A stretch of 64,000 bases of DNA from an uncultured Nitrososphaerota archaeon (GTDB lineage: Archaea; Thermoproteota; Nitrososphaeria; Nitrososphaerales; Nitrosopumilaceae). The position numbers and the translations under genes were made by a program. The stretch is from assembly GCA_963701075.1 (NCBI GenBank), contig OY969559.1, positions 1,280,001 through 1,344,000 of the forward strand, read 5' to 3'. This document shows, piece by piece, positions 18,245 through 45,874 of this stretch; the first letter of the stretch is position 1; the number at the start of each line of letters is the position of its first letter. Under the pieces are notes generated by a model. The model was not told the DNA's origin and did no database searches. It was given only the letters and a program-made list of their open reading frames with translations.

Positions 18245-18265
18245 TGTGTATGATATGATCAAACA
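18245..18265. promoter_or_regulatory. Degenerate TGT-N9-ACA-type site upstream of flaB copy 1
   Basis: TGTGTATGATATGATCAAACA, 40-60 bp upstream of ATG 18205. Confidence 0.4.
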
Positions 18266-18289
18266 TGGGGATTCTTTTTATTGTTATTC

Positions 18290-19282
18290 TCAAGCTTTGA
18301 TGATGCTATGATCCATCAAATATTGCATACTTGAAATAAATTCTCCATCAGATATAGTACCACTAGACCACCAACCGGCATCACTTCTAATCCAGGAAGG
18401 AATCGTATTTGTTTTTGTTAATGTTTGGTTTAAAAGATTTGTCTTCAAATCGCCCGATGTCATAAGAAACTGAATGCTTTTTATGAAATCTTCATCACTA
18501 ATTTGATTTTGCGACCACCATTTTGCATTGTTTTTTACCCAATATGGAATATTAAAAGAATTCAAGCTAGTGTTTATGGTATTTTGACTCTGGTTATTGA
18601 AAAAAAAGTTAACATCTGTAACTGTTGCAGGAAATTCATAAAATGCCTTGATCTTATAGTTTCCTGTAGTTTTAAAAATGGAATTTGAGGCTTTTAATTG
18701 ATAATTAAAACTATGGTCAGATAACAAATTAGTACTATCTGAAAAAACCATGTTCCTTTGGCTATCAAAAATTTGTATCCTCAAAGGCATAATTTGAGAA
18801 GTATCGTTTACTACTCCTGATATTTGTATGGTGTCATTACTCGAATAAGATTGCTTGTCGGCTGTAATGGTAAAGGCAGGTGATTTTCCAAGATATGCTG
18901 TCCCCACATCTATTTTTCCAGTCATCCATGGATGAATTTTACAAAAATAATAATAAGCAGACCAGATGCCAGACGGAATCTTAAAAGAATAACTTTGGCC
19001 AGGATTTAAAACTCCACTACCAAACAATTTACCGGCATAATTGAGATGGTTTGGCATCCCACTTGTGATATCATGAGTGGTGGTATCATTATTTATCCAC
19101 ATTATGGTATCGCCTTGCCTTACCTGTAATTCGGGGGGCCAGAAAATTGTACTGTTTGTATCTGTACCATTTCTCTTAATGGTTATTTTCCACGGTATGT
19201 TAGAGTTGTCGGCAAATACCATATGTGAGGATAATAATAAGATCATACCAATTGAAAAAACTACATAGTAGCGCAGATCCAT
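18290..19282 (-). CDS. Secreted cupredoxin (plastocyanin/azurin-like) with Ig-like domain and thaumarchaeal IPxWxKNNAxWW C-terminal repeats
   Basis: Signal peptide; type-1 Cu ligands HDITSG...YFCKIHPWMTG; IPYWVKNNAKWW and IPSWIRSDAGWW repeats. Confidence 0.9.
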   Translation of the reverse strand: MDLRYYVVFSIGMILLLSSHMVFADNSNIPWKITIKRNGTDTNSTIFWPPELQVRQGDTIMWINNDTTTHDITSGMPNHLNYAGKLFGSGVLNPGQSYSFKIPSGIWSAYYYFCKIHPWMTGKIDVGTAYLGKSPAFTITADKQSYSSNDTIQISGVVNDTSQIMPLRIQIFDSQRNMVFSDSTNLLSDHSFNYQLKASNSIFKTTGNYKIKAFYEFPATVTDVNFFFNNQSQNTINTSLNSFNIPYWVKNNAKWWSQNQISDEDFIKSIQFLMTSGDLKTNLLNQTLTKTNTIPSWIRSDAGWWSSGTISDGEFISSMQYLMDHSIIKA

Positions 19283-19427
19283 GCATTTTTGGCGCTATTA
19301 CCTCAAGATAAAAGCAAGCTTGTTCAAATTAAAATCACAGAATAGTATCTGTGTATCGCATATAGTTACATTGCGTATTATCTATGTCATGCTTCTCAAA
19401 AGATCTCATATACGTATTCGTATTCTG

Positions 19428-19466
19428 ATAAAATAAAAAGAAAGGGGGCTAGAGTATGCCTATTGC
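19428..19466 (-). terminator. Pyrimidine/T-rich terminator after flaB copy 2
   Basis: The minus strand reads GCAATAGGCATACTCTAGCCCCCTTTCTTTTTATTTTAT right after the stop codon. Confidence 0.45.
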
Positions 19467-20162
19467 TTACCCTAGGTCAACGATGTTTGTCGTGACTGGT
19501 GGTACTTGTCTTTCGACGGACAATGCTGAACCTGTTGGCACATCAATCTCTGCCTTTATGTTGTCAAGTTCTCCTGGTCTGTCTGCACTATCATATACGA
19601 TAGCAAGCTCTGCATGTTCGCCCTGATCAAGTATGTTATTGATTGGAGTGTTTGAAACATCCCAGTAGATGATTGCCTTTGTCTCACTTGGAGCGCCTAC
19701 CTTAGTTGCACCTGTTATGGGTGCTGCGGTAATGCATCCGGCTGTTACTGCTGCATTAAGTGCTCCAGTTACGTTATTGTACGTGGCAGATGTCAGAACA
19801 CAATCGTTTTGATAGATGTTGTCGTATCGTACAGTATTGCTGTAGTACTTGATGCTAGTCTCATTCGGATTTAGACTGACCGAGTCCCCACCGCTTGCAA
19901 CCTGCAGTGGTACGATGGTGGCATTGAGCACTCCTGCGCTTACATCTCCAATTCCTGTGACCTTGCCTGCAATCTCTATTGCACTGCTTGCCTCAGTATA
20001 ACTGGATATTATCGCAGTCTTTGCTTTCTGTGTGGTCGAAAAACCCATGTTGAGTACCACGAATGCTAGAGCTGCTGCTACTATTACAAATGCAATCATA
20101 ACAATTGCAGCTTCTATACCCATGACTCCACGACGAGTTCTACGTTTTGAAACGGAGTTCAT
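19467..20162 (-). CDS. flaB: Archaellin FlaB/ArlB, copy 2
   Basis: Same motifs as copy 1; differs only in a 20-nt patch and the last sense/stop codons. Confidence 0.95.
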   Translation of the reverse strand: MNSVSKRRTRRGVMGIEAAIVMIAFVIVAAALAFVVLNMGFSTTQKAKTAIISSYTEASSAIEIAGKVTGIGDVSAGVLNATIVPLQVASGGDSVSLNPNETSIKYYSNTVRYDNIYQNDCVLTSATYNNVTGALNAAVTAGCITAAPITGATKVGAPSETKAIIYWDVSNTPINNILDQGEHAELAIVYDSADRPGELDNIKAEIDVPTGSALSVERQVPPVTTNIVDLG

Positions 20163-20201
20163 TAGGTGTGGATATAGTATGGAGGATATTATACACAAGT
20201 C

Positions 20202-20216
20202 TGTGTGGATTGAACA
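20202..20216. promoter_or_regulatory. Palindromic operator-like site upstream of flaB copy 2
   Basis: TGTGTG-GAT-TGAACA, 40 bp upstream of ATG 20162 and about 8 bp upstream of minus-strand TATAAT. Confidence 0.6.
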
Positions 20217-20408
20217 AACTATGTTTCCTAAAAAGCAGTGAAAAAAGATTATTTGTTTAATACTAAGTCATGAAGTGCGCAAAATGTGAAAATAAACGTA
20301 CTGATGATTTGTATGTAGACGTCATGTTTAAACACATTATATGTAGAAGTGACAAATTTTATTTGTTTGTTATCTAATAACTAATGAAAATGATGGACGT
20401 TTGCTGTG

Positions 20409-20423
20409 TGTTTGATGCAAACA
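20409..20423. promoter_or_regulatory. Perfect palindromic site upstream of MCP-like gene
   Basis: TGTTTG-ATG-CAAACA followed by TACGTCATTCTATAAG. Confidence 0.6.
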
Positions 20424-20526
20424 TACGTCATTCTATAAGGTGCTAACTGTTTAAAAATTGGCAATATGGTTGGAATAGGCAATGGCGAATTATCTGAAAA
20501 CTGTATTTTCATGGGCTTAAATTAAA

Positions 20527-21640
20527 ATGAGCAATACATTATTGAAATCCAATGATTCAATTCTGTCCCAAGACACTCAAACTGCAAAAGGAAAAGGAAG
20601 CAGCTTTACTCTCGAACGAGTTGCAGAGTTGTCTGAAATTCTTGCAAGTGAAGTAGAGTCCGCAATAGGTGAAATAGAAAGGTTGAATGGACAAACGCAC
20701 ATGATAGCAATTAATGCAAGGATTGAAGCAAGCAGGGCGGGCATGGCAGGAAAGGCGTTCTCAGTAGTTGCCGAGCAGATGAATGACCTTTCGGGAAAAA
20801 TTGGCATAGTGAGCAAGAAAATGCGAAACGAAAGTAGAGGCTCTATTGATGAATTGGGAAATTTGATAAAAACACAAGCCACCAATGTTCGAGGAACTAG
20901 ACTTTCTGATCTTGCACTGACTAATATCGATCTGATTGATAGAAACTTGTATGAAAGGTCTTGTGATGTACGTTGGTGGGCAACCGATGATAGTATTGTC
21001 AATGCGTTATCGACAAATACAAAAGAAGCATGTAGTCTTGTGTCAAAACGAATGGGCATCATATTGAATTCTTACACTGTATACTTTGATTTAGTATTGT
21101 GTGATATGGATGGAAACGTGGTGGCAAATGGCAGGCCTGATATCTACAAGTCTGTTGGCATGAATGCAAAAAATACTGGATGGTTTATCAGTGCAATGAA
21201 AACTAGTAGCGGAAAAGAATTTGGATTTCAGACAGTGAGTAAATGTGCCTTAGTAAATAATGAACTCAGTCTTGTATTTTCTTGTACAGTAAGAGAACAT
21301 GGCGATCAAAATGGTGCAGTTTTGGGTGTGCTTGGAGTTGTATTTCGTTGGCAGGACTTGGCACAAAAGATTGTAAAAGGTGTTCCGATATCTGATGAAG
21401 AAAAAGACAGAACGAGAATATGCATAGTTGACGAAAATGGCCTGCTTCTTGCTGACTCCAAAGACATGATGCTTGAAGAAGTGATTGAATTTTTGGGAAA
21501 AAATGAGATTTTCAGCCAAAAAAAGGGCTATACTGTGTCTGAATACAAGGATGAAAAATGTTGTCTCAGCTCATGCGTTTTCTCAAGGATATGAGACATA
21601 TGCATCCAACTGGCATTCTATGATTATTCAAAAACTGTAA
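20527..21640 (+). pseudogene. Soluble MCP-like transducer (N-terminal MCP signalling tip, C-terminal Cache-like sensor); +1 frameshift near 21568 affects the last about 23 aa
   Basis: QTHMIAINARIEASRAGMAGKAFSVVAEQM; RNLYERSCDVRWWATD. Removing one base gives ...KCCLAHAFSQGYETYASNWHSMIIQKL-stop at 21640. Confidence 0.8.
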
Positions 21641-22039: not shown

Positions 22040-22109
22040 AATCCAAGCCTTCATTTAGCGTATTTTAATGTATATGCCATGATAAAAATAGAATAATAAT
22101 TTCTGTGTA

Positions 22110-22124
22110 TGATCAATTCAAACA
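22110..22124. promoter_or_regulatory. Operator-like site upstream of the MCP-che operon
   Basis: TGATCA-ATT-CAAACA followed by TACGT (same flank as the 20409 site), 46 bp upstream of ATG 22170. Confidence 0.5.
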
Positions 22125-22169
22125 TACGTGAACATATTATTGGTCTGGACAATAAACATCACATTACAC

Positions 22170-23517
22170 ATGATAGAGAAGATTTTCAAAATAAGCATTA
22201 AAACAAAAATTAATGCGATGGTAAATGTTGCATCTGCTATCTCAATAGCAACTGTCTCATTTTCTAGCTATTCTGCAGCAGGACATGCAGCCGGGGCAGA
22301 CGATGCAATGCATTATGTCATAACGGGAATCATAATGCAAGCAGTGGTAGGAATACCTGCCTATTTTGTAGCTCAGCTCTATTACAAAACCAATACTCAA
22401 AATGGCTGCAATGGCAGAAAAAATCGGTCACGGTGATCTCACGGGGGACATAATGGAATCAAAATCACATGACGAACTTGGAAAATTAACTCAAGCGTTT
22501 GGTAACATGGTTGTTAACTTGAGACAATTAGTAACACAGGTAAGAGATGGCTCTTCTCTGGTTGCCTCAAATTCTGAACAAGTTGTTTCTTCTACTGAGC
22601 AGATGAATTCATCTGTACAACAAATATCATCAACGATTCAGCAGATATCAAAAGGCTCACAGACGCAAGCTCATGAGTTGGAAGCAACCAGTAGAGTAGT
22701 AACAAAGCTTACAAAAGACATGAAAAACCTTGCATTAAAAGCCAGTGTTACTGCAGATCTTACAAAAGAAGTTGGAGAAATATCAGAAACTGGATCAAAG
22801 TCGGCATCAGAAGCAGATTTTAGAATGTCCAAGATTATTAGCGTAACTAATGAATCTGCGCGAAAGATAAAAGAGCTGGCTGACAGAAGCGGTGAAATCA
22901 CTACAGTTCTAGAAGTCATAAGAAAAATTGCTGATCAAACAAATCTGCTTGCATTGAATGCAGCTATAGAAGCAGCTCGTGCGGGTGAGGCCGGTAGGGG
23001 ATTTGCTGTAGTGGCTGATGAAGTTAAAAGACTTGCAGAGGGTTCTGCTAAATCATCAGAAGAAATAGATGAATTAATAAAACAAATTCAAGATGATGCC
23101 AAGGCTACTGTACAAAGTATAGAGGGCGGTAGTAAGGAGATATCAGAAGGCAGACTTGTGATAGACAAGGCGCTGAAAGCATTGAACGAAATAGCTACAA
23201 AAGTAAAAGAAGTCTCTGCAAATGTAATGGACGTGGCAAATTCAACTCAAACTCAAGTTACTGAGATAGAAAAATTATCAAAAGCAGCGTCTGAAATAGC
23301 GGCAGTTTCTGAACAAAATGCCTCTGCAACTGAAGAGGCATCAGCTGCCACAGAACAACAAACAGCTGGAACGCAAGAGATTGCCGCATCTGTACAAAAA
23401 ATGGCAAGCATGGCAGATGATCTTTCAAAAATTGCATCTGGCTTTAAACTGCCAGACGGTTCAAATCTGATGGACTCAAAAAATAATGCAAAGAAAGAGG
23501 AGGCAATGGCACAGTAA
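22170..23517 (+). pseudogene. Membrane-bound methyl-accepting chemotaxis protein (2 TM, HAMP, MCP signal); +1 frameshift near 22375
   Basis: Removing one base joins TM2 to HAMP: ...IPAYFVARSITKPILKMAAMAEKIGHGDL...DELGKL; IADQTNLLALNAAIEAARAGEAGRGFAVVADEVKRLAE. Span 1348 nt = 3n+1. Confidence 0.88.
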
Positions 23518-23999
23518 TGAGTGAAACTGTCGTTGATGGATATTTGCAGGCAGTGGTGTTCAACTTGATTGATCAGAAAACAAACAAGAAAGAAGATTAC
23601 GGCATATCAATAGAACAGGTAAGAGAAATACGACCACTAGAGTCAATCACAAAGGTACCTAATGCCAAGAGCTACGTTAGGGGTGTAATGAATCTGAGAG
23701 GGATGATAGTTCCAGTAATAGATGTAAAGGAAAAGCTGGGTTTTAGCAGTGGAACAACAAGCCAAAAATCTCGTATTCTTGTTGCTGATGTAGATGGAAA
23801 ACTTACAGGACTTTTAATTGATGAAGTTGATCAAGTCATACGTATTCCAACAAAAGAGATTGAAACAAATCTTTCAGGTGGCCTTGAATCTTTAGAATAC
23901 ATAAAAGGTGTTGCTAAAACTTCTGGAAGGCTAATTGTTCTTTTAGACATGCAAAAACTTTTGCGGTATGATTCATTGATATCTCAATCGGAGGCATAA
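23517..23999 (+). CDS. cheW: Chemotaxis coupling protein CheW
   Basis: YGISIEQVREI, ITKVP, GVMNLRGMIVPVID, GLLIDEV. Confidence 0.95.
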   Translation: MSETVVDGYLQAVVFNLIDQKTNKKEDYGISIEQVREIRPLESITKVPNAKSYVRGVMNLRGMIVPVIDVKEKLGFSSGTTSQKSRILVADVDGKLTGLLIDEVDQVIRIPTKEIETNLSGGLESLEYIKGVAKTSGRLIVLLDMQKLLRYDSLISQSEA

Positions 24000-24000
24000 C

Positions 24001-24381
24001 ATGTCTACAAGCCCAACAAAGATTCTGATTGTAGATGATGCTTCATTTATGAGAGTTGTCTTAAAAGACATTCTTGTATCTCATGGCTTGGTATCACAAA
24101 TCTATGAAGCAGGTGACGGCCTTGCAGCAGTGGAATCCTACAAGCAATTCAAGCCAGATATAGTGACAATGGATGTTAATATGCCCAAAGCAGACGGAAT
24201 TCAGGCCCTGAAATCTATCATACAACTTAACCCAAAAGCCAAAGTGGTAATGGTGACATCTGTTGAACAAAAACACATCGTACAAGATGCCATAAAATCA
24301 GGCGCAAGAGATTATGTGATAAAACCATTTGATAGATCCAATGTAGCTATGGTGATAAGCAAAGTTATCAGGTCGAGATAG
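24001..24381 (+). CDS. cheY: Chemotaxis response regulator CheY, copy 1
   Basis: ILIVDDASFMR, PDIVTMDVNMP, YVIKPF; between cheW and cheB. Confidence 0.93.
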   Translation: MSTSPTKILIVDDASFMRVVLKDILVSHGLVSQIYEAGDGLAAVESYKQFKPDIVTMDVNMPKADGIQALKSIIQLNPKAKVVMVTSVEQKHIVQDAIKSGARDYVIKPFDRSNVAMVISKVIRSR

Positions 24382-24384
24382 CGT

Positions 24385-25446
24385 ATGATGGTAACGTCTG
24401 AGAAGAATCAGATCAAAATCATGATAGTCAATGATTCTTCATACATGACAGAATTATTACGCGATTTGTTATCGTCAGAGGACAACATCAAAATTATTGA
24501 AACCGCCCGAGACGGGCTTGAAGCGTTACGAAAACTCAAACACATGACTCCTGACGTCATATTGTTAGACCTAGAGATGCCTAACATGGACGGGTTATCC
24601 TTTATTGAAAACGTAATGAAAGAAAAAATTGTTAATATCATTATTGTGAGTAATTACAGTAAATCTGGAAGCAAACTGATTTTAGATTCCCTAGAACTTG
24701 GAGCAGTTGATTTTATCGCCGTGCCACAAGACAGCAATGATGTTATCAAGAATCTAAAGAATATATTGATATCCAAAATAGAGGTCGCTTCAAGATCCAA
24801 TCCTCATGTTTTGGCTCCAAAAGCCATTTCAAAATTGCGCCCATCCATTAACAAAGGTGTAGCGTCGGGGGAAATGGCATCAAAAGTGATTGTCATAGGT
24901 GCATCTACTGGCGCACCACGCGTGATAACTGATATTCTTCGAGAAATTCCAAAGGACATTCCTGCTGCATTTCTGATTGTTCAGCACATGTCAAAAGAAT
25001 TCATATCAACTTTTGCAGAAAGACTTGATGAAGTTTCAAAATTGCATGTTAAACAGGCAGCAGAAGGTGATCTGATACAAGAAGGAGTGGTATTACTTGC
25101 TCCAGGCGACATGCATATGGAGATATCATCAGATCATAGAATAAAACTAAATCAAGGTCCTAAGAGATTTGGAGTTAGACCAGCTGTAAATGTTACCATG
25201 GTATCCGCATCAGAAGTATTCGGTGCTAATACTATAGGTGTATTGCTGTCTGGGATGGGTCAGGATGGTGCGTTTGGAATGAAAATGGTAAAGAAAAGAC
25301 ACGGAATGACACTTGCACAGAACGAATCATCATCAGTTGTATTTGGAATGGCAAAGGCAGCAAATGATCTTCACGCTGTTGATAAAATGGTACATGCTGA
25401 TAACTTGGCAGAAGAAATAATCAAGGAGATAAAGCAAAATGTCTGA
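24385..25446 (+). CDS. cheB: Chemotaxis methylesterase CheB
   Basis: Receiver domain plus GASTG, VQHM, SGMGQDG catalytic motifs. Confidence 0.95.
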   Translation: MMVTSEKNQIKIMIVNDSSYMTELLRDLLSSEDNIKIIETARDGLEALRKLKHMTPDVILLDLEMPNMDGLSFIENVMKEKIVNIIIVSNYSKSGSKLILDSLELGAVDFIAVPQDSNDVIKNLKNILISKIEVASRSNPHVLAPKAISKLRPSINKGVASGEMASKVIVIGASTGAPRVITDILREIPKDIPAAFLIVQHMSKEFISTFAERLDEVSKLHVKQAAEGDLIQEGVVLLAPGDMHMEISSDHRIKLNQGPKRFGVRPAVNVTMVSASEVFGANTIGVLLSGMGQDGAFGMKMVKKRHGMTLAQNESSSVVFGMAKAANDLHAVDKMVHADNLAEEIIKEIKQNV

Positions 25447-27001
25447 AAATAGCAAATACCGCGAGATGTTTGTACAAGAAGCCTTGGAACACGTTGAAAA
25501 TCTAAATCAACACCTCTTAAAATATGAAGAAGAACCTAATGTGAAAGAACATGTAGACATTCTATTTAGATCTGCCCATACTTTGAAAGGTATGGCTGCA
25601 ACCATGGGATATGATCAGATTAGGGAGATTTGTAAGACTATCGAAGAAATTTTTGATACATTCAGAAAAGGAGAAACAACAATAACCGCAGAATTAGGAA
25701 ATGTCATATTTCTTGGAATTGATCACCTGAGGAAACTAGTAAGTGACGAAACAAAAAAAATTGATTTAAAAGAGTTTCTAAATTATGTACAAAACCCCAC
25801 TGAACTCAAAGTTAATGATCTAGAAGCCGATCCTGTATCTCCACAACAGGTAAATTCTCCTACAGTCAGGGTGAAAATGCAAGATCTTGACGCACTTGTA
25901 AATTTGGTTGGAGAAATGATGATATCTAAAATGCGACTAGACCAGATAATACAAACATGTAACTCTGATGAAGGCAAAGAGGTCCTAATGAATTTTGGCA
26001 GGCTTATTACTGATATCCAGTATCAAACAATGAAAATTAGGCTAGTTCCTGTAGATCATGTCTTTAATAGGTTTTCAAGGATGGTACGTGATGTTTCAGC
26101 ATCTCTTGGTAAGGAAGTCAAACTAGAGATGGAAGGCTCTAATATTGAGCTGGATCGTACTGTATTGGACGCAATTACCGATCCTCTTCTTCATATGCTT
26201 AGAAATGCAGTTGATCATGGATTAGAAACGCCATCTGAAAGAAAAGAAATGGGAAAATCAGAAACTGGCACAATACATCTGAAAGCCAGTCGCATTGGAG
26301 ATAGGGTGGAAATCCAAGTTGTTGATGATGGAAAGGGTATTGATCTTGACGCAATTAAAGCAAAAATCTTGGAAAAGAAAATCATAACTCAGGAAGAACT
26401 TGATCATATGGCTGAAGAAGAAATTGTAGAGTTGATTGGAACTCCAGGTCTTTCAACCGCAAAGGTGGTTACTGACATATCTGGGCGAGGAGTGGGAATG
26501 GATGTTGTGATGACCAGAGTCAAAAATGTTGGCGGACATGTGAAAATCTTGACTGAAAAAGGAAAAGGAACTAACATCACATTGACAATTCCTATGAGTT
26601 TGGCTATAATAGGAGGACTATTAGTTAACATATCAAATCAGAAATACGTTCTACCGCTTTCAAGCATATCTACTACAATTACAGTTGACTCTAAAGATAT
26701 AAGATGTGTGCATGGAAAAGAGATGATAACTCTAAGAGATAAGATTGTTCCTATAATTCGAGCTTCAGTGGTGCTTGGATTGAATTCATCTGATGTGGCA
26801 GTTAATGCCCCCGTAAATATAGTAGTTGTAGATAAGGATGGCAAGTTTTATGGTTTAGTAGTAGACTCACTTGAAAAAGAACAAGAAGTTGTAATAAAGC
26901 GTCTTGACGGTATGACTAATTCGTTGGCAACATTTTCAGATGCAACTATATTGCCAGATGGGAAAGTGGCGTTAATTCTTGAGCCATCATTACTAGTGTA
27001 G
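25439..27001 (+). CDS. cheA: Chemotaxis histidine kinase CheA (apparently lacking P2)
   Basis: FRSAHTLKGMA (P1), LDALVNLVGEM, HMLRNAVDHG, DDGKGID, SGRGVGMDVV, C-terminal CheW-like P5. Confidence 0.96.
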   Translation: MSENSKYREMFVQEALEHVENLNQHLLKYEEEPNVKEHVDILFRSAHTLKGMAATMGYDQIREICKTIEEIFDTFRKGETTITAELGNVIFLGIDHLRKLVSDETKKIDLKEFLNYVQNPTELKVNDLEADPVSPQQVNSPTVRVKMQDLDALVNLVGEMMISKMRLDQIIQTCNSDEGKEVLMNFGRLITDIQYQTMKIRLVPVDHVFNRFSRMVRDVSASLGKEVKLEMEGSNIELDRTVLDAITDPLLHMLRNAVDHGLETPSERKEMGKSETGTIHLKASRIGDRVEIQVVDDGKGIDLDAIKAKILEKKIITQEELDHMAEEEIVELIGTPGLSTAKVVTDISGRGVGMDVVMTRVKNVGGHVKILTEKGKGTNITLTIPMSLAIIGGLLVNISNQKYVLPLSSISTTITVDSKDIRCVHGKEMITLRDKIVPIIRASVVLGLNSSDVAVNAPVNIVVVDKDGKFYGLVVDSLEKEQEVVIKRLDGMTNSLATFSDATILPDGKVALILEPSLLV

Positions 27002-27011
27002 GTAAATCGAA

Positions 27012-27611
27012 ATGACAACTAAAACATTGAATCCAACAGAATTGTATTCTCTTGAAAATGTGTTAAGCTCATACATTACACAGAAAACGTCCTCTGCCTT
27101 GTCATCTCTTCTTGGAGAATCTACAGTACACACTATAAAGAAAACACATACGGAAACTTCTAAAATTGGAGACTTGAAAGATTTTGTTAACGAAATAGTT
27201 CTCTGTTCTGTATTTCTTCATGGAGGAGGAGATGTACGTGTGGGAATTCTATATTCTATATCTGAAATTGACGCAAAAAAAATTGCGGCGAAATTGTTAT
27301 GCACGGAAAAAGTTGACTCACTTGATGATTTAGGAAAGTCTGCGATATCAGAGGTGGGAAACATTATGTCAGGATCATTTTTCAATGCATTGTCCGATCA
27401 CACTGGGTTAAAAGTAGATCTTTCCACCCCTGATTTTGCAATGACGTCGATTTCATCATTATTAGAGCCACACGCATCAGGATTTCTTTGTGAGATTAAT
27501 GATATTGTAACAGAGATAGAATTGATTGGCGTTGAAAGCAACGTGTGTGTACATATGTTGGTAATTCAAGATCATGACAATGCTAGAAAGCTTTTGAATA
27601 CGAAACGGTGA
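27012..27611 (+). CDS. cheC: CheC/CheX-family phosphatase
   Basis: SAISEVGNIMSGSFFNAL motif. Confidence 0.88.
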   Translation: MTTKTLNPTELYSLENVLSSYITQKTSSALSSLLGESTVHTIKKTHTETSKIGDLKDFVNEIVLCSVFLHGGGDVRVGILYSISEIDAKKIAAKLLCTEKVDSLDDLGKSAISEVGNIMSGSFFNALSDHTGLKVDLSTPDFAMTSISSLLEPHASGFLCEINDIVTEIELIGVESNVCVHMLVIQDHDNARKLLNTKR

Positions 27612-27697
27612 CATTAATTGATAAATATGAAGATCAGTTTACGAAATATTTTGGAATTGAGTGGGTATGATATGAATAGTTTACACGGTGATAGTTT

Positions 27698-28552
27698 TTG
27701 AGTCTTAATGAATTATCAATGAGTGAAGACTCGCTGCATACATTTAGCAAGGTGTTTGAGAGTTATGGATTTGATATTAAGAGATACAAGACTGCCTTCA
27801 TGAAGAGAAGATTAGATAGAAGAATGAGGGTTCTAGAGATTAACGACTATTTTGAATATGCCACAGTTTTAAAAAATGAAAGACGTGAATTTGAAGAACT
27901 ATTTACATCCCTGTCGATCAACGTGACAAACTTTTTCAGAGATTCTGCAGTATATGATAAATTCAGATTGTTCATAATACCTAAAATTTTATCTGGTCTA
28001 GAGCAGCGCTACAAAATCAGAGTATGGAGTGCTGGGTGTGCATCGGGAGAAGAAGCATATTCCCTTGCTATCATGTTCACATATGCGATTGGGAAAACAA
28101 ATAATTTTGATGTAGAGATAATTGCAAATGACATTAATCCAAATGCAATCGAATATGCACAAAGTGGTAGATATTCTGAGAAAAGCATTACCAAATTACC
28201 ACCTGAGGTGGTTGCAAATTATTTTCAAAAGATAGCGGATAGTGAAAACAATGTAGGATATGAAGTTATACCATCTATAAAAAATTTAGTGACATTCAAA
28301 GTGGGCGACATACTGTCTAATGATTCAAAAAATCTTGACGTGATATTCTGCAGAAATGTATTGATTTATTATGAAAAAGAAGCCCAAGAAATAATTATGA
28401 CAAAATTTCATCACTGTTTGAAAGAATCAGGTTATCTTGTGCTAGGTATGGATGAAACCATGCTGGGAAGAAGATGTGAGAAGTTGTTCAACCCATTACT
28501 GGCACGTGAAAGAATCTATCAAAAAATTGCAGTGCCTAGTAATCCAAAATAG
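27698..28552 (+). CDS. cheR: Chemotaxis methyltransferase CheR
   Basis: INVTNFFRD, VWSAGCASGEEAYSLA, DVIFCRNVLIY. Confidence 0.96.
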   Translation: MSLNELSMSEDSLHTFSKVFESYGFDIKRYKTAFMKRRLDRRMRVLEINDYFEYATVLKNERREFEELFTSLSINVTNFFRDSAVYDKFRLFIIPKILSGLEQRYKIRVWSAGCASGEEAYSLAIMFTYAIGKTNNFDVEIIANDINPNAIEYAQSGRYSEKSITKLPPEVVANYFQKIADSENNVGYEVIPSIKNLVTFKVGDILSNDSKNLDVIFCRNVLIYYEKEAQEIIMTKFHHCLKESGYLVLGMDETMLGRRCEKLFNPLLARERIYQKIAVPSNPK

Positions 28553-28754
28553 TCATCATATATTTGGTTTCACACGTGTAATATTCACATGTGTGATCAA
28601 ACTATACAACTGTACTAATATTATGATCTTGCACCAAACAAGTCTTAAATGATACCTATGCTATACCCTCTATTTGTTAAGACTAAAACAAACCAATTAT
28701 TTTGTAATGTTATGCTGGAGAAATTTGTTATGTTATCTCAATCGGAGGCATAAC

Positions 28755-29135
28755 ATGTCTACAAGCCCAACAAAGATTCTGATTGTAGATGATGCTTCAT
28801 TTATGAGAGTTGTCTTAAAAGACATTCTTGTATCTCATGGCTTGGTATCACAAATCTATGAAGCAGGTGACGGCCTTGCAGCAGTGGAATCCTACAAGCA
28901 ATTCAAGCCAGATATAGTGACAATGGATGTTAATATGCCCAAAGCAGACGGAATTCAGGCCCTGAAATCTATCATACAACTTAACCCAAAAGCCAAAGTG
29001 GTAATGGTGACATCTGTTGAACAAAAACACATCGTACAAGATGCCATAAAATCAGGCGCAAGAGATTATGTGATAAAACCATTTGATAGATCCAATGTAA
29101 CTATGGTGATAAGCAAAGTTATCAGGTCGAGATAG
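28755..29135 (+). CDS. cheY: Chemotaxis response regulator CheY, copy 2
   Basis: Identical to 24001-24381 except GCT>ACT (A116T); GGAGG RBS upstream of ATG 28755. Confidence 0.92.
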   Translation: MSTSPTKILIVDDASFMRVVLKDILVSHGLVSQIYEAGDGLAAVESYKQFKPDIVTMDVNMPKADGIQALKSIIQLNPKAKVVMVTSVEQKHIVQDAIKSGARDYVIKPFDRSNVTMVISKVIRSR

Positions 29136-29199
29136 CGTATGATGGTAACGTCTGAATTGTTCATGACTGATCAAGAGATTGCTTCTATTATGGTAAAAT

Positions 29200-29799: not shown

Positions 29800-29806
29800 T
29801 TGATTT

Positions 29807-33320: not shown

Positions 33321-33325
33321 AACAT

Positions 33326-35344: not shown

Positions 35345-35363
35345 TGTTTGTTTGGAACAAACA
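35345..35363. promoter_or_regulatory. Perfect palindromic site upstream of receiver/kinase operon
   Basis: TGTTTGTT-TGG-AACAAACA, containing TGTTTG-GAA-CAAACA; 46-50 bp upstream of ATG 35299. Confidence 0.62.
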
Positions 35364-35400
35364 TATAGTGATGGAATAACGACGCTATATTTTTTAGAAC

Positions 35401-37416
35401 TTAATTCATTAACCTCATGAATCTTTTGTCGATCCTAAATCCTTCAAGATCTTTTTCATCTCTTAAAACCTCTTTATATCTTGAATCCATTGAAATCATA
35501 AATTCCAATAGGTTGAAAGATTCTTCCTTTCTTCCGTCCTTTAACATGGCACATGATTTGTAATAAATTGCGTTCGTATTGATGGGGTTGGATAAGAGTA
35601 TCTTGTCAAAGCACTCTATTGCATCGTTATATCTTCCAATTGATGATAACAATCTTCCTTTCTGGCATAATGTATTTCCATAGTTGTTATCGTATTCTAT
35701 TATTTTATCGTAACATAATAACGCCTCTTCAAACAGATCCAGAGACTCTAGTGCCAATCCTTTGTTGTATAATGCAGGTATGTGGGTTGAATTTACACTC
35801 AATATCTTGTCAAAGCACTCTATTGCCTCTTCCCGCCTTGTCATTTCTGAAAGCAAGATCCCTTTGTGGTATAGAGATGGCATGTGATTTGGGTTGATAT
35901 TCAATACCGAGTCAAAAGATACTATGGCTAAATCTAAAAGACCGACTTTTGTTAGTACAATCCCTTTGTGAAACAACGAAGGCAGATGATTCGCATTGAT
36001 ACGCAACACTGCATCATAACACATTATGGCATCATCGAAATGTTCTAGTGATTCGCACATCGTTCCCTTGTTATATAATGCAGGAATATTACCTTGATTG
36101 ATTCCAATCGCTCTGTTGAAACAATCTATGGCTTTTTGTGGATTGATTTCTGATAATGCCATTCCTTTATTGTGCCAAGATAACTCATGGGTTGAATTTA
36201 CACTCAATATCTTGTCAAAGCACTCTATTGCCTCTTCCCGCCTTGTCATTTCTAGCAATGCCAATCCTTTGTTGTATAATGCAGGTATGTGGGTTGAATT
36301 TACACTCAATATCTTGTCAAAGCACTCTATTGCCTCTTCAAACAGATCCAGAGACTCTAGTGCCAATCCTTTGTTGTATAATGCAGGTATGTGGGTTGAA
36401 TTTACACTCAATATCTTGTCAAAGCACTCTATTGCCTCTTCCCGCCTTGTCATTTCTGAAAGCAAGATCCCTTTGTGGTATAGAGATGGCATGTGATTTG
36501 GGTTGATATTCAATACCGAGTCAAAAGATACTATGGCTAAATCTAAAAGACCGACTTTTGTTAGTACAATCCCTTTGTGAAACAACGAAGGCAGATGATT
36601 CGCATTGATACGCAACACTGCATCATAACACATTATGGCATCATCGAAATGTTCTAGTGATTCGCACATCGTTCCCTTGTTATATAATGCAGGAATATTA
36701 CCTTGATTGATTCCAATCGCTCTGTTGAAACAATCTATGGCTTTTTGTGGATTGATTTCTGATAATGCCATTCCTTTATTGTGCCAAGATAACTCATGGG
36801 TTGAATTTACACTCAATATCTTGTCAAAGCACTCTATTGCCTCTTCCCGCCTTGTCATTTCTAGCAATGCCAATCCTTTGTTGTATAATGCAGGTATGTG
36901 GGTTGAATTTACACTCAATATCTTGTCAAAGCACTCTATTGCCTCTTCCCGCCTTGTCATTTCTGAAAGCAAGACCCCCTTTTTGTATAATATATTGACA
37001 TTGTAACGATCTATGTACAATATACTTTCACAAGATTCTATTGCTTGTTCGAGTTTACCTGATGATTCTTGAATGATTACTTTACAGTAAATTGCTTTCG
37101 TATTGTTGGGCTGTAATTTTATTATGTTTTCTATTTGTTCAAGTGCATCATCATAATTTCTTGTATTGTAGAAAAAATTACATAATCCAAATTCTATTTC
37201 TGTGGATAGTTTAGTAGATTTTATATTGCAATTGCTTTTCTGTGTTAACTTTTTATAAAGTCTTATCAAAGATTCCAATTTCTCTTTTTCTTTATGGGGA
37301 ATTTCTATTTTTATAAGGTCGTAATTAGTAATCAACAGTGTCTTTTTTACAATACATTTGATAATATTAGATATGAGCGATATTTGTAATTGGGATTTTT
37401 CTAGGTCTGAATACAT
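35401..37416 (-). CDS. Tetratricopeptide-repeat protein (about 16 TPRs)
   Basis: Repeated 34-aa units ALYNKGLAL...EEAIECFDKIL. Confidence 0.93.
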   Translation of the reverse strand: MYSDLEKSQLQISLISNIIKCIVKKTLLITNYDLIKIEIPHKEKEKLESLIRLYKKLTQKSNCNIKSTKLSTEIEFGLCNFFYNTRNYDDALEQIENIIKLQPNNTKAIYCKVIIQESSGKLEQAIESCESILYIDRYNVNILYKKGVLLSEMTRREEAIECFDKILSVNSTHIPALYNKGLALLEMTRREEAIECFDKILSVNSTHELSWHNKGMALSEINPQKAIDCFNRAIGINQGNIPALYNKGTMCESLEHFDDAIMCYDAVLRINANHLPSLFHKGIVLTKVGLLDLAIVSFDSVLNINPNHMPSLYHKGILLSEMTRREEAIECFDKILSVNSTHIPALYNKGLALESLDLFEEAIECFDKILSVNSTHIPALYNKGLALLEMTRREEAIECFDKILSVNSTHELSWHNKGMALSEINPQKAIDCFNRAIGINQGNIPALYNKGTMCESLEHFDDAIMCYDAVLRINANHLPSLFHKGIVLTKVGLLDLAIVSFDSVLNINPNHMPSLYHKGILLSEMTRREEAIECFDKILSVNSTHIPALYNKGLALESLDLFEEALLCYDKIIEYDNNYGNTLCQKGRLLSSIGRYNDAIECFDKILLSNPINTNAIYYKSCAMLKDGRKEESFNLLEFMISMDSRYKEVLRDEKDLEGFRIDKRFMRLMN
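35723..36948. repeat. 609-bp tandem duplication (6 TPRs) plus several nucleotide-identical TPR sub-blocks
   Basis: GCCTCTTCAAACAGATCC at 35723 recurs at 36332; the block GGGTTGAATTTACACTCAATATCTTGTCAAAGCACTCTATTGCCTCTTC recurs 6 times. Confidence 0.92.
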
Positions 37417-39325: not shown

Positions 39326-39402
39326 TTGAGTTCTGAATGCATTGTAACTAAATTAACATGTGTTTGCATGAACCGCACAAACTCAGCAAATAAAATATAA
39401 GG

Positions 39403-39933
39403 TTGAATCTAGTTGGATTAACGTTGGAAATACTCATAGCTGACGACGAACCTGATCTCTTGGACCAATACAAATTTACTCTTGAAGCAAAAGGTCATAA
39501 CGTCATAACTTGCAAAGATGGAAAACAATGTCTTGATGTATACCTAATTGAATCTGAACAACAAATTGCAGGTGATCCCACATCTCCATTCGATGCTGTG
39601 ATCTTGGACTATCAAATGCCTGAAAAAAACGGTATTGAAGTGGCAAAAGGAATCTTGGCGGTTAATCCACACCAAAGAATCATATTCGCTTCTGGTTATA
39701 TCCAAGAAACTTTCCTGGATTCGATAAAACAACTAGGACAAATAACGGAAATAATGAAAAAACCATTTTCATTGCAAGCGTTGGTTGATACTATTGAGGA
39801 TAAGGATATCTATTCGCAACTGGAAAAGCTAAATGTCGATGTATCTGTAATTAAAGAGCTGAATCCATCACATGCACAAATAAAGGCATATTTTGATGTC
39901 TTGTGTAGGCTGCAAAAGGGCAGAACTTTTTAG
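39403..39933 (+). CDS. Response regulator receiver with about 40-aa C-terminal extension (start may be TTG 39424)
   Basis: ILIADDE, FDAVILDYQMPEKNG, IIFASG, KKPF. Confidence 0.92.
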   Translation: MNLVGLTLEILIADDEPDLLDQYKFTLEAKGHNVITCKDGKQCLDVYLIESEQQIAGDPTSPFDAVILDYQMPEKNGIEVAKGILAVNPHQRIIFASGYIQETFLDSIKQLGQITEIMKKPFSLQALVDTIEDKDIYSQLEKLNVDVSVIKELNPSHAQIKAYFDVLCRLQKGRTF

Positions 39934-39986: not shown

Positions 39987-40985
39987 TTATTGAGTGTCAT
40001 TGCAAAATCCGTTGTCAGTGTTATTATATAATGATTGTATGGCAGCAACATCGCATTCTGATATGTATGGGTAATCTGTTTGAATTGTAGCATGCATGAG
40101 ATCTTGAGGATCGCTTGTATGTGGAAGACCTAATGCATGACCAAATTCATGTCTTACTATTGTTGCAAGTTGATTGTCTGTAAGCTTATCTGCGTCATAG
40201 ATAGTAATAAAAGATTTTAAGATCTGCGAATTGTCAACGATTGATCTGGTATATCCAGAATATCCGTCTGGATCTTCAAGCTGGGATAAAACTATGACAA
40301 TTTGGCCAGGTCCATCATTAGACTCAACAATGTTAAAATCAGTTGGAACGTAGAACTCGGTATCTGGTATCGTACTTAGCGCGCCTTTCCAACCCTTAAA
40401 GTATTCTGATTTTCCATCTGATGGAGACTTGCCTAGTAAAGAATTGTCTATGTATAATGCATTCGTTGAGAGAATAGCGTCTTCTACAGTGTTAATTTTT
40501 TCTTGACTTAGTTGGCCTGGATTTATTATGCTCACTGTTAACGGCATGCCTTTGGCAATGTTCCAGTATTTGTGAGTGACATCTGCCTGCCCTTGAAGAT
40601 TTTCTATCAAATACCGTGTTTTTATATTACTAGAGATATCTGCAGAATTTACTTGATAATGGTTACTGACTACATAGAATAGTAGAACTGCAAGTATTGG
40701 TAATACTATCAATTCTGCTTTTAATATGGTTCTTGCACTAAGCTTTTGAATTTTCCTCTTTACTGTAATAATTTCATGTGAAATTTTATTCTGTTTTTTA
40801 ATTAGATCACTGATTTCTTCTGGTGGTACATCGCTATCCAATGATTGATTATAACTTTCTTCATGAATCTCTAGTAATTGTAGTTGTTCTGTTGTCTTAT
40901 TGAGTTCTTTTGTTAGTACTGATAATTGTAATTTTAGCTGTTTGATGGATCTTGCCTTATCTGATGTTTGTTGATCTATTTGCAT
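39987..40985 (-). CDS. Matrixin (M10)-like zinc metalloprotease with N-terminal coiled coil and TM anchor
   Basis: RHEFGHALGLPH and Met-turn DLMH; TM LIVLPILAVLLFYVV. Confidence 0.9.
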   Translation of the reverse strand: MQIDQQTSDKARSIKQLKLQLSVLTKELNKTTEQLQLLEIHEESYNQSLDSDVPPEEISDLIKKQNKISHEIITVKRKIQKLSARTILKAELIVLPILAVLLFYVVSNHYQVNSADISSNIKTRYLIENLQGQADVTHKYWNIAKGMPLTVSIINPGQLSQEKINTVEDAILSTNALYIDNSLLGKSPSDGKSEYFKGWKGALSTIPDTEFYVPTDFNIVESNDGPGQIVIVLSQLEDPDGYSGYTRSIVDNSQILKSFITIYDADKLTDNQLATIVRHEFGHALGLPHTSDPQDLMHATIQTDYPYISECDVAAIQSLYNNTDNGFCNDTQ

Positions 40986-41025
40986 TTTACAAAGACAACT
41001 CCTTATTTTTAGCCAATCCATCCAC

Positions 41026-41919
41026 CTAACTTAATGCCATGATGAGGTCCCATGGAGTTAGGACATTGTTTAGTGTCATAACAAAAGAATGTTTCATACC
41101 TAACATAATTTTACACATATCTGGTATCCTTGTATTTTCAGAAATTATTCTTCCATTTTTTAGATTAAGTGTTGTTGACTTTAAATCAAAAAAATTGTTA
41201 ATATTTTCAAGATAATTTAACTCTATGATTTTTTCAAATATTATTTGGGGATTGACAAATTGAGGCGTATTTTCTAGTACTAAAACTTCTGTTTCGTTTT
41301 GAATCATCTGTGCTATGATTGTACCAATGGTGTCATCTCGATTAAAAGTAGGAATTAACTTGAGAGGCATATCGGAAACTCTCATACACGTATCACATAG
41401 TACACCTACTTCTAACAAACGTCTTGCCGAAACAGTGGAATAATTCCCGTCTTCATTTTTAACCAAGGCAAAATCCCTTTGTATGTGCTGCATTTTTTTA
41501 AGTAAATCATTAACTTTAGTAGTGGAAGAAGCCACATACAGATTTCTATTCATTACATTCTGAACTGTTAGATCTGAGAAGAAGGAATGATCTGGGTTTT
41601 TTGAAAACTCTTTAATGACTTCTTGTCCTCCGAGCATCCCAACTGGAATATCATTTTCCATTGCAACCAAATTATTTGTAAATGTTTCTAGAAATCTAAC
41701 AAGCATCGAAGTAGCAACCCATATCTTTTCTTTGCTTTCTATCGTAGCCATTGATGAATATACAAGTAAATGCGGCAGAATGTCCTCTATCGTACACTCA
41801 TTTAGGCGCAAATTCTTTTGGTTACTAGTGGATGGAAATAATATGCGTTCTCTATGTGTTTTAACAGTATCATTCAGACGCAATTTACTCTTCAAATTAA
41901 ACATGAAATCCATATTCAT
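41026..41919 (-). CDS. Degenerate CBS-domain protein
   Basis: CBS-like patterns (TVQNVMNRNLYVASSTTKVNDLLKKM, VLTPWDLI). Confidence 0.7.
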   Translation of the reverse strand: MNMDFMFNLKSKLRLNDTVKTHRERILFPSTSNQKNLRLNECTIEDILPHLLVYSSMATIESKEKIWVATSMLVRFLETFTNNLVAMENDIPVGMLGGQEVIKEFSKNPDHSFFSDLTVQNVMNRNLYVASSTTKVNDLLKKMQHIQRDFALVKNEDGNYSTVSARRLLEVGVLCDTCMRVSDMPLKLIPTFNRDDTIGTIIAQMIQNETEVLVLENTPQFVNPQIIFEKIIELNYLENINNFFDLKSTTLNLKNGRIISENTRIPDMCKIMLGMKHSFVMTLNNVLTPWDLIMALS

Positions 41920-42016
41920 TTTAAATCACAACTGAAATACGCTGAAACGCCACCATTTGTAGAGATCATGCGAAACATGTTTTTCTATTGAGGAATTGGA
42001 ATGATATTTTCTAGTA

Positions 42017-42031
42017 TGTTCACATTGAACA
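42017..42031. promoter_or_regulatory. Perfect palindromic site upstream of the CBS/matrixin genes
   Basis: TGTTCA-CAT-TGAACA, flanked by GACTTGTGT as at the flaB copy 2 site. Confidence 0.62.
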
Positions 42032-42119
42032 GACTTGTGTCTGATTTTATTGTACCAACAGAAAAATTACTTCAATATATTTAATGTATAGTGTTTATGT
42101 TATTAGTTAATTTTAAATT

Positions 42120-44633: not shown

Positions 44634-44747
44634 TACATGTTTTTATAAAGAAAATTCTCATATAAGATACTGTATGGTTTTTTTGAACGAATTTTAGGTA
44701 TTATCGTACATAATGTGAATAAACTAGATCAATCTACAAAAAAGGTG

Positions 44748-45561
44748 TCAGGTAGATTGGTATACAACTTCTAGAGGTTTTGACTTTTTCCACAAGTGAG
44801 AACATAGGCTGTAGATGTTGTTGACTATTTCTATGGAATTTGTATGAACGATTGAATCTGTATCGTCGTTTAGATCCATAGAACCTTTCATTGATCCTGA
44901 CATGATGATCTGTTTGTCTTTTTCTCCAACAATTCTTCCTTTGGAAGGAAGTTTTCCAAGTCTGGTCTCACTCAGCTCCCAATCTATTAACAAGCTGGAT
45001 GGCTTGTTTGTTTTCAATCTCTGTCACTATTCTTACTTCGCCTCCTTTTTTGATGCATTCTTTTATCTTTTCAGGTATGGCGGTATGATACATTCTCATG
45101 ATGTCTTCAACTGTGGTCACGATATATACGACATCAGTAGACTCTGTTATCATTTTACCTATGCGTGAATAAATGTTTGATCGTCCCTGTATTATGGAAA
45201 AAGAGGATAACTCCGTTGCAGGGGTGGGTCGTTTTAATTCATCCAAGTTTGTAATTAGTTGCTTTGAAAGTTTTTCCATTGTTATGATTTCGTCTTGTTT
45301 TTTCTGAATTATATTTTTTAGTGCTTCTTGTGGATCTATTGCTTTACATATTGTAGGATTGGATAGCGTCGTTGTAATTAGCCCCACATTTCTTAGTTTG
45401 TTCAATGCTCTGTATGCCTTCCCTCTGTCAACATCTAATTTTGCAGACAAACTGCCAACTGTAACCTCTCCTGTTCTTAATAATCCCAGGTAAATTTTTG
45501 CGTCGTCACCCTCCAAACCAAAATACTTGAGTGTGGAAATCAGATCTTCTTCGATACTCAA
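44748..45561 (-). pseudogene. TrmB-family transcriptional regulator; +1 frameshift near 44970-44974
   Basis: LKYFGL...AKIYLGLL...KAYRALNKLRNVGLI wHTH; removing one base gives ...NRLGA(S/E)ETRLGKLPSKGRIV...HLWKKSKPL. Span 814 nt = 3n+1. Confidence 0.85.
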
Positions 45562-45818
45562 ATTTCAATTGCTCCTGCGATTATGACCTGATCTGTATGC
45601 ATCTTATGAGAGAGGTCCTTACACTCATAATGATGAGAATTAGGCGTAAATTTAATAATGCTATGACTAGATGCCGGTTTTGCCATGCAGATCATTGAAG
45701 ATCCGATCTGATCCATATTGATATATAAGAAGATCGGTTCAAGTGAGCCAATAGACAGTCTATCTCTTTTGACTCCAGAGACAGAATCGGCTTTATGGTG
45801 GAATGAGAGTAAATTCAT
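45558..45818 (-). CDS. Possible hypothetical protein translationally coupled to TrmB
   Basis: 86-aa ORF whose TGA overlaps the TrmB TTG start; a palindromic site lies 42 bp upstream. No motif. Confidence 0.35.
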   Translation of the reverse strand: MNLLSFHHKADSVSGVKRDRLSIGSLEPIFLYINMDQIGSSMICMAKPASSHSIIKFTPNSHHYECKDLSHKMHTDQVIIAGAIEI

Positions 45819-45859
45819 CTCATTAGTTTACAACAATATGAGGGATATGAGAAGATGTT

Positions 45860-45874
45860 TGTACAAAATAAACA
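45860..45874. promoter_or_regulatory. Operator-like site upstream of the TrmB unit
   Basis: TGTACA-AAA-TAAACA, overlapping TGTTTG at 45856. Confidence 0.5.

Follow-up and report, generated by a model that had tools for sequence, protein, structure and literature searches.

A conserved 21-bp palindrome abutting the core promoters of a motility and signaling island in an ammonia-oxidizing archaeon is probably the operator of one dimeric regulator

The motility and signaling island

The genome studied here, from an uncultured archaeon of the Nitrososphaerota, is a single contig of 1.916 Mb with 38.6% G+C, and the window that we analyzed is the 64,000-nucleotide stretch from base 1,280,001 to base 1,344,000. 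The genome encodes an archaeal AmoA, and the organism is therefore an ammonia-oxidizing archaeon, as an initial annotation of the window had assumed. That annotation noticed a 15-bp dyad, TGTTYR-N3-YRAACA, recurring between the genes of a motility and signaling island. We find that this dyad forms the central part of a longer palindrome of 21 bp, GTNTGTTYR-N3-YRAACANAC (scanned as GTNTGTTYRNNNYRAACANAC), which stands beside the TATA-like boxes of the island's promoters and probably serves as the binding site of a single dimeric regulator.

The gene map proposed for the island was confirmed by Pfam. Gene calls, and with them the intergenic status of each site, come from a home-made, crude dicodon caller that predicts 2,285 genes genome-wide; coordinates are those of the window unless stated otherwise. 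Archaellum genes occupy 11341 to 20198 on the minus strand and encode two archaellins, ArlG/ArlF-like proteins, a KaiC-like ArlH and a T2SSE-like ArlI in two open reading frames (ORFs). The names ArlF/G/H/I/J are putative, as we assigned them from domains and gene order. The archaellin ORFs (17510-18262 and 19467-20198, minus strand) have ATGs at 18205 (archaellin A) and 20162 (archaellin B), with a cupredoxin gene between them. An MCP-signal/dCache gene (20527-21594, plus strand), here called MCP-like after the methyl-accepting chemotaxis proteins (MCPs), is followed by a che operon (22128-30307, plus strand) encoding a split MCP, CheW, CheY, CheB, CheA, CheC, CheR, CheY2, CheC2 and CheD. The two-component genes are a split histidine kinase (31358-32453, plus strand), a receiver (32860-33264, minus strand) followed by a small ribbon-helix-helix (RHH)-like gene (32487-32789), a kinase (33326-34792, minus strand) with its receiver (34820-35299, minus strand), and a receiver with a TTG start (39403-39933, plus strand), amounting to two kinases and three receiver-only response regulators. 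A CBS-domain gene (41026-41919, minus strand) lies beside a matrixin-like peptidase gene (39987-41021, minus strand), and a TrmB-like gene (44748-45561, minus strand) is present as two ORFs, 44748-45017 and 44968-45561. The island also encodes TPR, NHL and Big_1 proteins and an A24 prepilin peptidase, and its flanks are housekeeping genes for biotin and purine synthesis, HMG-CoA synthase, S10 and EF-1alpha.

A 21-bp palindrome specific to the island

Upstream regions of the MCP-like gene from 20 same-genus loci share the block TGTATGTTTR-N3-YRNACATACG followed by TTCTATAAG, and vary in the spacer and in the downstream leader; we therefore describe the element as a 9-3-9 palindrome. Although only orthologs of this single site were used to derive the extension to 21 bp, the other island sites have flanks that conform to it as well. 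The perfect 15-mers that had been reported at 20409, 35349 and 42017 are all present, three against 0.21 expected, a number reached in 0 of 100 shuffles; the genome holds eight perfect copies, and these three are the only intergenic ones. Near-perfect copies at 20202, 22110, 33306 and 45860 likewise stand as they were written. At up to one mismatch, nine of the 28 intergenic 15-mer matches fall in the island, which makes up 1.48% of intergenic bases, with one of the nine overlapping another and one possibly coding.

The 21-mer separates the island from the rest of the genome. The window contains eight matches at up to two mismatches, where 0.38 are expected; none of 100 shuffles has as many. 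At up to one mismatch there are eight matches in the genome, of which seven are intergenic, and all seven of these lie in the island (20199, 20406, 22107, 33303, 35346, 42014 and 45857); the eighth is within a coding sequence outside the island, at genome position 923,028. The reversed-pattern control gave no match in the genome. We also built a weight matrix, symmetric by construction, from 22 sites (up to two mismatches) of the syntenic islands of two relatives, G014 and G015, and from these only. Its information lies mostly in positions 1, 2, 4 and 5 and their mirror positions, as symmetrized. When every position of the genome studied was scored, ranks 1 to 9 were nine island promoters, in the order 42014, 22107, 45857, 20406, 20199, 18244, 35346, 31298 and 33303. 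Rank 10, at genome position 1,250,301, is 37 bp upstream of a kinase/receiver operon located 30 kb before the window, and a weaker match lies 43 bp upstream of a divergent receiver gene beside it. This suggests that the regulon extends slightly past the island. The kinase, receiver and divergent receiver form a cluster (locus L133, genome 1,247,001-1,253,000) with sites at 3301-3321 and 3601-3621 of the locus, and relatives without the island's genes show this arrangement too.

Together these scans support a shared dyad at the promoters of the archaellins, of the MCP-like receptor and the che operon, of several two-component units, and of the CBS/matrixin and TrmB units. The archaellin A promoter (minus strand, ATG 18205) has a site at 18244-18264 with two mismatches, rank 6 in the matrix scan, which ends 38 bp before the ATG and is followed 5 bp downstream by the TATA-like AATAATAC. 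The archaellin B site (20199-20219, minus strand, ATG 20162) has one mismatch and ends 36 bp before the ATG. Sites without mismatch precede the MCP-like/dCache gene (20406-20426, plus strand, ATG 20527, with TCTATAAG 5 bp downstream) and the CBS/matrixin-like unit (42014-42034, minus strand, ending 94 bp before the ATG). One mismatch each was found in the sites of the che operon (22107-22127, plus strand, ending 42 bp before the MCP ATG at 22170), of the receiver at 32860-33264 (33303-33323, minus strand, ending 38 bp before the ATG; perfect in G014 and G015), of the receiver 34820-35299 and kinase 33326-34792 (35346-35366, minus strand, ending 46 bp before the ATG), and of the unit formed by a small ORF (45558-45818) and the TrmB-like gene (45857-45877, minus strand, 38 bp before the small ORF's ATG).

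Three weaker matches sit at the same places as sites in relatives. The histidine kinase at 31358-32453 has a match with three mismatches (31298-31318, plus strand, rank 8) 39 bp before its ATG, where G014 and G015 have a site with one mismatch, also at 39 bp. Between cheR and the second cheY, 28591-28611 is degenerate, with four mismatches by hand count and a matrix score of 13.2; its counterparts in G014 and G015 have one to two mismatches and lie 136-140 bp upstream of the gene. Promoter scoring here used the window at 28588, three bases to the left, and the distance of 143 bp to the ATG was obtained by subtraction. The receiver at 39403-39933 has a weak match with three mismatches (39362-39382, plus strand, rank 14) 20 bp before its TTG, and the counterpart has two mismatches in G014, with none at up to two mismatches in G015. 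Other proposals of the initial annotation fared less well. Half-sites at 19321 (cupredoxin) and 37456 (TPR) had no counterpart at up to two mismatches upstream of the G014 and G015 orthologs. From the pair proposed at 31282 and 31301, the latter, which is the 21-mer at 31298, is backed by position and conservation, whereas 31282 has three mismatches by hand count and no further support. Among the proposed surface genes, those for the Big_1, NHL and TPR proteins are without a site of their own.

The palindrome abuts the core promoter

Most dyads had been described as ending 39-50 bp before the start codon, and the spacing is much as described: at 7 of 11 promoters, 36-46 bp separate the end of the 21-mer from the start codon; the distance is 94-100 bp at two others, and 143 and 20 bp at two weak ones. 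At every dyad, read in gene orientation, an AT-rich box follows 3-8 bp downstream, as in AATAATAC, TATAATAT, TCTATAAG, ATATTAT, TATTAATT, ACTATATGG and AAAATATC. TATA-like hexamers in this genome peak sharply at -30 to -28 from the ATG (850 genes that start with ATG and have 90 bp or more of spacer upstream), which suggests that most of its genes are leaderless, and the boxes that follow the dyads occupy this canonical TATA position. The gap between dyad and TATA hexamer is 5-7 bp at leaderless promoters, about the size of one transcription factor B (TFB) recognition element (BRE). The dyad spans about -37 to -58 and hence lies directly against the BRE. Every site is upstream of the TATA box, and none lies over or downstream of the TATA box or the start.

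The sole RNA run that we found is a soil metatranscriptome, stored as contigs and containing 6% of the sampled words. Its contigs, 88-99% alike, cover the archaellins (window 17600-18190 and 19510-20010) at high word depth, and the che genes are covered at low depth only. Relatives thus appear to transcribe archaellins in soil.

Sites are kept at orthologous promoters across the genus

Positional conservation in related genomes had been set beforehand as one of the observations on which the proposal could fail, and we found the sites kept across the genus at orthologous promoters. The 20 same-genus loci around the MCP-like gene, whose orthologs occur in 19 of 36 genus genomes drawn, contain 58 sites (up to two mismatches) against one match to the reversed pattern, and two loci from another family contain none. 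At the MCP-like gene itself, the dyad and TATA block are present in 19/20 genus loci. One locus (L002, G031:C18) has the same arms around a 4-nt spacer (GTATGTTTG-TATA-CAAACATAC), a natural spacer variant. The che site is found at up to two mismatches in all 19 genus loci that reach that far. For the archaellin B site, 13 of the 19 loci that reach it score at up to two mismatches in the scored window, three (L011, L012 and L014) have the same dyad one window over, two further loci have it at the window edge, and L019 has three mismatches; L003 is too short.

Other units of the island behave in the same way. Orthologs of the receiver at 34820-35299 have a site with up to two mismatches at 19/21 promoters, 44-48 bp before the start, and orthologs of the CBS gene have one with at most one mismatch at 22/22 promoters, at 80-94 bp. 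Eight CBS paralogs (32-36% identical) have four to six mismatches at best, and none of the eight has a site. The TrmB unit has its site in 22/22 genomes, 280-301 bp before the TrmB start. These counts include three unpublished genomes (G012, G028 and G034); by subtraction, 17/19 receiver, 19/19 CBS and 19/19 TrmB promoters remain without them, as do 53 of the 58 sites, in 18 loci, around the MCP-like gene. Synteny of the island extends to G014 and G015, which have 13 and 9 sites respectively, and in G014 a site precedes every archaellin copy. Across orthologous sites both half-sites are kept while the spacer and the 5' untranslated region vary, and the arms are conserved in sequence, beyond mere complementarity.

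A TrmB-like protein is the best local candidate for the regulator

The TrmB-like protein matches PF01978 with an E-value of 1.4e-15 (57.3 bits against a cut-off of 25.6; 54.6 bits for an intact ortholog) and is the only DNA-binding protein that Pfam recognizes among the 35 island ORFs scanned. Its orthologs, 81-99% identical, have 270 aa (269 in L097) and keep the recognition helix almost unchanged. A structure model of an ortholog (mean predicted local distance difference test score, pLDDT, 79.5) has a winged helix-turn-helix at residues 1-74, a long helix at 77-109 and an alpha/beta domain at 121-270. The best Foldseek matches are TrmBL2 (5box, E 2e-14) and TrmB (3qph, E 8e-11), with TM-scores of only 0.35-0.40, and sequence similarity to the solved TrmBL2 is marginal (E 0.0016). 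No sugar-binding effector domain was detected, the intact ortholog having no Pfam match past residue 77 at E up to 1. In length and fold the protein resembles TrmBL2, a family member not known to be under sugar control.

The dyad of this unit is separated from the TrmB-like gene by the small ORF (45558-45818, minus strand, 86 aa), the first in the operon, which overlaps the TrmB start by 4 nt. It is open in 22/22 genomes, with 86-88 aa in 19 of them; the other three have 79, 90 and 109 aa. There is little sequence conservation, the ORF evolving fast and matching nothing in Pfam, and it may represent either a small, rapidly changing protein or a leader that is translated.

Among 63 genus genomes, all 35 with a TrmB ortholog have 3-13 sites (up to one mismatch), and 25 of the 28 without one have 0-2; leaving out the unpublished genomes, the counts are 32/32 and 23/26. 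The exceptions, with sites and without the gene, are G003 (78% complete), G031 (70%) and G029 (95%).

Other proteins were considered and set aside. The RHH-like protein at 32487-32789, which had been named as a second candidate, is a poor one: it is only 32-80% identical across the genus and has no Pfam match, stops interrupt it in G032 and G028, no copy of it was found in G013, G033, G007 and G030, and it is present in G027, which is free of the motif. A TrmB paralog (47-48% identical) occurs in G002, G003, G008, G017, G018, G025, G080 and G082 and has the same recognition helix as the TrmB-like protein; genomes with the paralog only have 4, 0, 0 and 2 sites, and a dyad upstream of the paralog, with two mismatches, is found in G008 only. 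G029 encodes a TrmB-like protein beside an A24 peptidase, 32% identical over 160 residues and with a different recognition helix, and this locus has no site at up to three mismatches.

Other features of the island and its relatives

In four genes of the island the coding sequence is divided between two ORFs that overlap out of frame: the ArlI-like ATPase (12843-14529), the MCP (22128-23517), the histidine kinase (31358-32453) and the TrmB-like gene (44748-45561). Single-base insertions outside homopolymers were shown for the TrmB-like and MCP genes. Genome-wide there are 84 neighboring out-of-frame ORF pairs, and the closed genome scores only 95% complete; with so many split pairs, assembly error is as likely as decay.

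The CheY genes at 24001-24381 and 28755-29135 differ at one of 126 residues, and the archaellins (17510-18205 and 19467-20162) are identical over most of their length, with 5' flanks identical for about 40 bp; both pairs are recent duplications. Archaellin copies number up to five in relatives, and it is there that many of the relatives' contigs break. The TPR protein (35401-37416, minus strand, 671 aa) contains long near-identical internal repeats of about 200 residues, with EEAIECFDKILSVNSTH recurring many times. A further receiver gene (10890-11285) adjoins the end of the arl operon, and just beyond the island (6995-8250, plus strand) lies a gene for a P-II-like protein and, after it, one for an adenylate/guanylate cyclase domain protein.

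Outside the island, relatives have a perfect dyad (GTATGTTTGAATTAAACATAC or close) within a highly conserved non-coding module, found at L121 1355-1660 (G014:C1, about 139,950-140,260), L122 and L123 (G029), L124 (G016), L125 (G005) and L126 (G031), with two copies each in G029 and G069. To one side is an element of about 65 nt whose outer stem, predicted to have 13 bp, hardly varies (of 19 predicted pairs, none shows a compensatory change), and on both sides there is a direct repeat, TGTAGAG..AATCTGCA. The module of the relatives had no Rfam match at E up to 0.1, and blastn did not find it in the genome studied.

Comparison with known archaeal regulators

Four archaeal systems offer comparisons. 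At the first archaellin promoter of Methanococcus and the Thermococcales, EarA has a site that precedes a weak BRE, and it is proposed to help recruit TFB; it recognizes TACATA-type units, present in one to four repeats that lie 9-11 bp from the BRE on its upstream side, and does so solely at the arl promoter (PMC10665913). In both systems a regulator site lies upstream of the BRE of an archaellin promoter. Here, in contrast, each archaellin promoter has one 21-bp palindrome, whose arm ...ACATAC only partly resembles TACATA, the palindrome abuts the BRE, and it occurs at 8-13 promoters, including those of che and two-component genes. CsmR, an Lrp/AsnC-type regulator of motility and shape in Haloferax volcanii, has a semi-palindrome, TATCA-N4-TGATA, near the TATA box of many motility promoters; its authors inferred positive action from the position upstream of BRE/TATA (PMC13286277), and CsmR and EarA are both read as TFB recruiters (PMC10665913, PMC13286277). 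The palindromic site beside the TATA box at many motility-related promoters is common to CsmR and the system described here, while motif and family differ: no Lrp/AsnC gene was seen in a Pfam scan of the island ORFs, and thaumarchaeal csmR homologs are stated not to co-occur with archaellins (PMC13286277).

TrmBL1 of Pyrococcus furiosus is a dimeric winged-helix protein that binds the TGM palindrome, TATCAC-N5-GTGATA, activating from sites upstream of BRE/TATA and repressing from downstream sites (PMC4706686). The candidate in the island resembles this family in its PF01978 domain and its TrmBL2/TrmB-like predicted fold. It would differ in half-site and spacer and in having motility and signaling genes rather than sugar metabolism as targets, and no sugar-binding domain was detected in it. 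In Sulfolobus, of the TACK group, ArnR and ArnR1 control the archaellin promoter positively (PMC6396743). Unlike the regulator proposed here, they are membrane-bound one-component regulators of a single promoter; the Pfam scan recognized no ArnR-like protein in the island, a scan that was not a dedicated homolog search. The system appears to work like the EarA, CsmR and TrmBL1 regulons, from which it differs in motif and, as far as tested, in protein.

Interpretation and alternative explanations

We put the probability that the dyad is the operator of one homodimeric regulator, which would coordinate the motility island, at roughly 80%. This reading follows from the conservation of the arms, the retention of their sequence, the fixed position beside the core promoter and the single functional gene set. 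Some observations weigh against it or against its details. The caller is crude, so start codons and the distances derived from them may be wrong at some genes. The genome-wide BRE signal is weak, a mild enrichment in A, which makes a "poor BRE" at the regulon promoters a soft argument; it was too mild to score BRE strength convincingly there. The metatranscriptome, being contigs without transcript ends, is silent on transcription starts. Finally, 15-mers with up to two mismatches number 55 in the window against 52 expected, without enrichment, so loose matches and half-sites carry no weight by themselves, and this pattern was abandoned for the 21-mer. That chance level, the fact that the archaellin promoters are paralogous duplicates, and the location of several sites just downstream of a preceding gene would suit a non-functional recurrence, whether chance in AT-rich DNA, a duplicated promoter, an RNA hairpin or a terminator. 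We regard this as very improbable, since it is contradicted by the shuffles, the reversed-pattern control and the independent matrix; beyond that, the flanks of different promoters have nothing in common except the dyad, the arms keep their sequence and not just their complementarity around a varying spacer, and some sites stand at divergent promoters without an upstream gene (20199/20406 and 45857). Ammonia-oxidizing archaea have many TFB paralogs, and the dyad might instead be an extended promoter element read by a specialized paralog of TFB or of the TATA-binding protein (TBP), an archaeal analog of a flagellar sigma factor. Its position exactly where a BRE is expected and its restriction to one functional gene set agree with this idea, but both arms of the 9-3-9 element are conserved, the distal arm being 12-21 bp from the BRE, which favors a symmetric dimer over a monomeric TFB, and no TFB gene was seen among the window ORFs scanned by Pfam; we consider such an element improbable. 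As to the sign of regulation, the initial annotation's single dimeric activator is borne out as regards one dyad that is island-specific, conserved in the genus and upstream of TATA, whereas activation is something we infer from the site position and by analogy with EarA, CsmR and TrmBL1. We favor it with modest confidence. A site touching the BRE can also exclude TFB, and a repressor that blocks TFB/TBP at the BRE and keeps the island silent until a signal arrives is a less probable but real contender: the proximal arm is only 3-8 bp from the TATA-like box and may overlap the BRE, Pyrococcus TrmB is described as repressing by steric hindrance at BRE/TATA (PMC4706686), and motility is costly and often held off. 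Set against this are the lack of any site over or downstream of the TATA box or the start, the 5-7 bp gap at leaderless promoters, about the size of a BRE, and the positive action of the known archaellum regulators with upstream sites (PMC10665913, PMC13286277).

Whichever the sign, an operator of one dimeric regulator leaves the choice of its binder, and here the TrmB-like protein, which the initial annotation had put forward, is the best local candidate on domain and genomic grounds, with a chance that we would place somewhat below even. In its favor are the site before its own operon in 22/22 genomes and the presence of sites in 35/35 genomes that have the gene. The proposal is weakened by three points. 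The co-occurrence is confounded and is not independent evidence, as the gene is itself part of the island. In the genome studied, the gene has a 1-nt insertion relative to two close orthologs and is frameshifted into ORFs of 197 and 89 aa. And G029 has four well-formed sites, two of them perfect, beside a receiver gene, a membrane protein and two non-coding modules, in an assembly with no TrmB ortholog, its nearest TrmB-like protein being 26-32% identical with a different recognition helix. It could equally be that the operator and regulon are as described, that the binder is encoded elsewhere, and that the TrmB-like gene is merely a target, and we give this nearly even odds. G029 and the frameshift speak for it, as do sites outside the island in the genome studied and in G014, G061 and others. 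Yet no alternative regulator was found, the RHH-like protein faring as described above, and the G029 assembly is in 140 contigs; no archaellin, MCP-like or CBS gene was found in it, and islands with repeated archaellin genes are often left unassembled. In G029, then, either the island is unassembled or the regulator is encoded elsewhere.

If the dyad is the operator of one homodimeric regulator, a sequence-specific factor would co-regulate at least eight island promoters here and 13 in G014. Its targets would be both archaellins, the MCP-like receptor, the che operon, three to four two-component units, the CBS/peptidase unit and the TrmB operon, with the arl operon probably reached through the archaellin promoters. 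The bound dimer may contact or recruit TFB/TBP at promoters with poor BREs, and its binding would switch the whole island on together. The TrmB-like winged-helix protein, if it is the binder, would regulate its own operon; otherwise the regulator would be encoded outside the island.

Implications for motility in ammonia-oxidizing archaea

In full-text searches that reached only a minority of subscription journals, we found no paper on a cis-element or regulator of thaumarchaeal archaellum or chemotaxis genes. The present finding supplies a probable operator of 21 bp that is conserved in the genus, a set of targets in which archaellins and chemotaxis are tied to orphan two-component systems, and one candidate protein. 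A more far-reaching reading, which we hold to be doubtful, is that swimming in a whole genus of ammonia-oxidizing archaea has as its master activator a TrmBL2-like member of the TrmB family that lacks a sugar domain. Acting from the palindrome beside the BRE, it would turn on the archaellins, the chemotaxis genes, several receiver-only two-component systems and its own operon, as well as a conserved pair of structured non-coding RNAs in relatives. The receiver-only response regulators under its control might feed back on it, since none of them has a DNA-binding domain. Were this true, a motility master regulator, unrelated to EarA, ArnR or CsmR, and a defined regulon would be known in the Nitrososphaerota for the first time. 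The motif could also be used to mark motility-linked genes in metagenome-assembled genomes of the genus, and the system would add a fourth, unrelated solution for archaellum control beside EarA, ArnR and CsmR.

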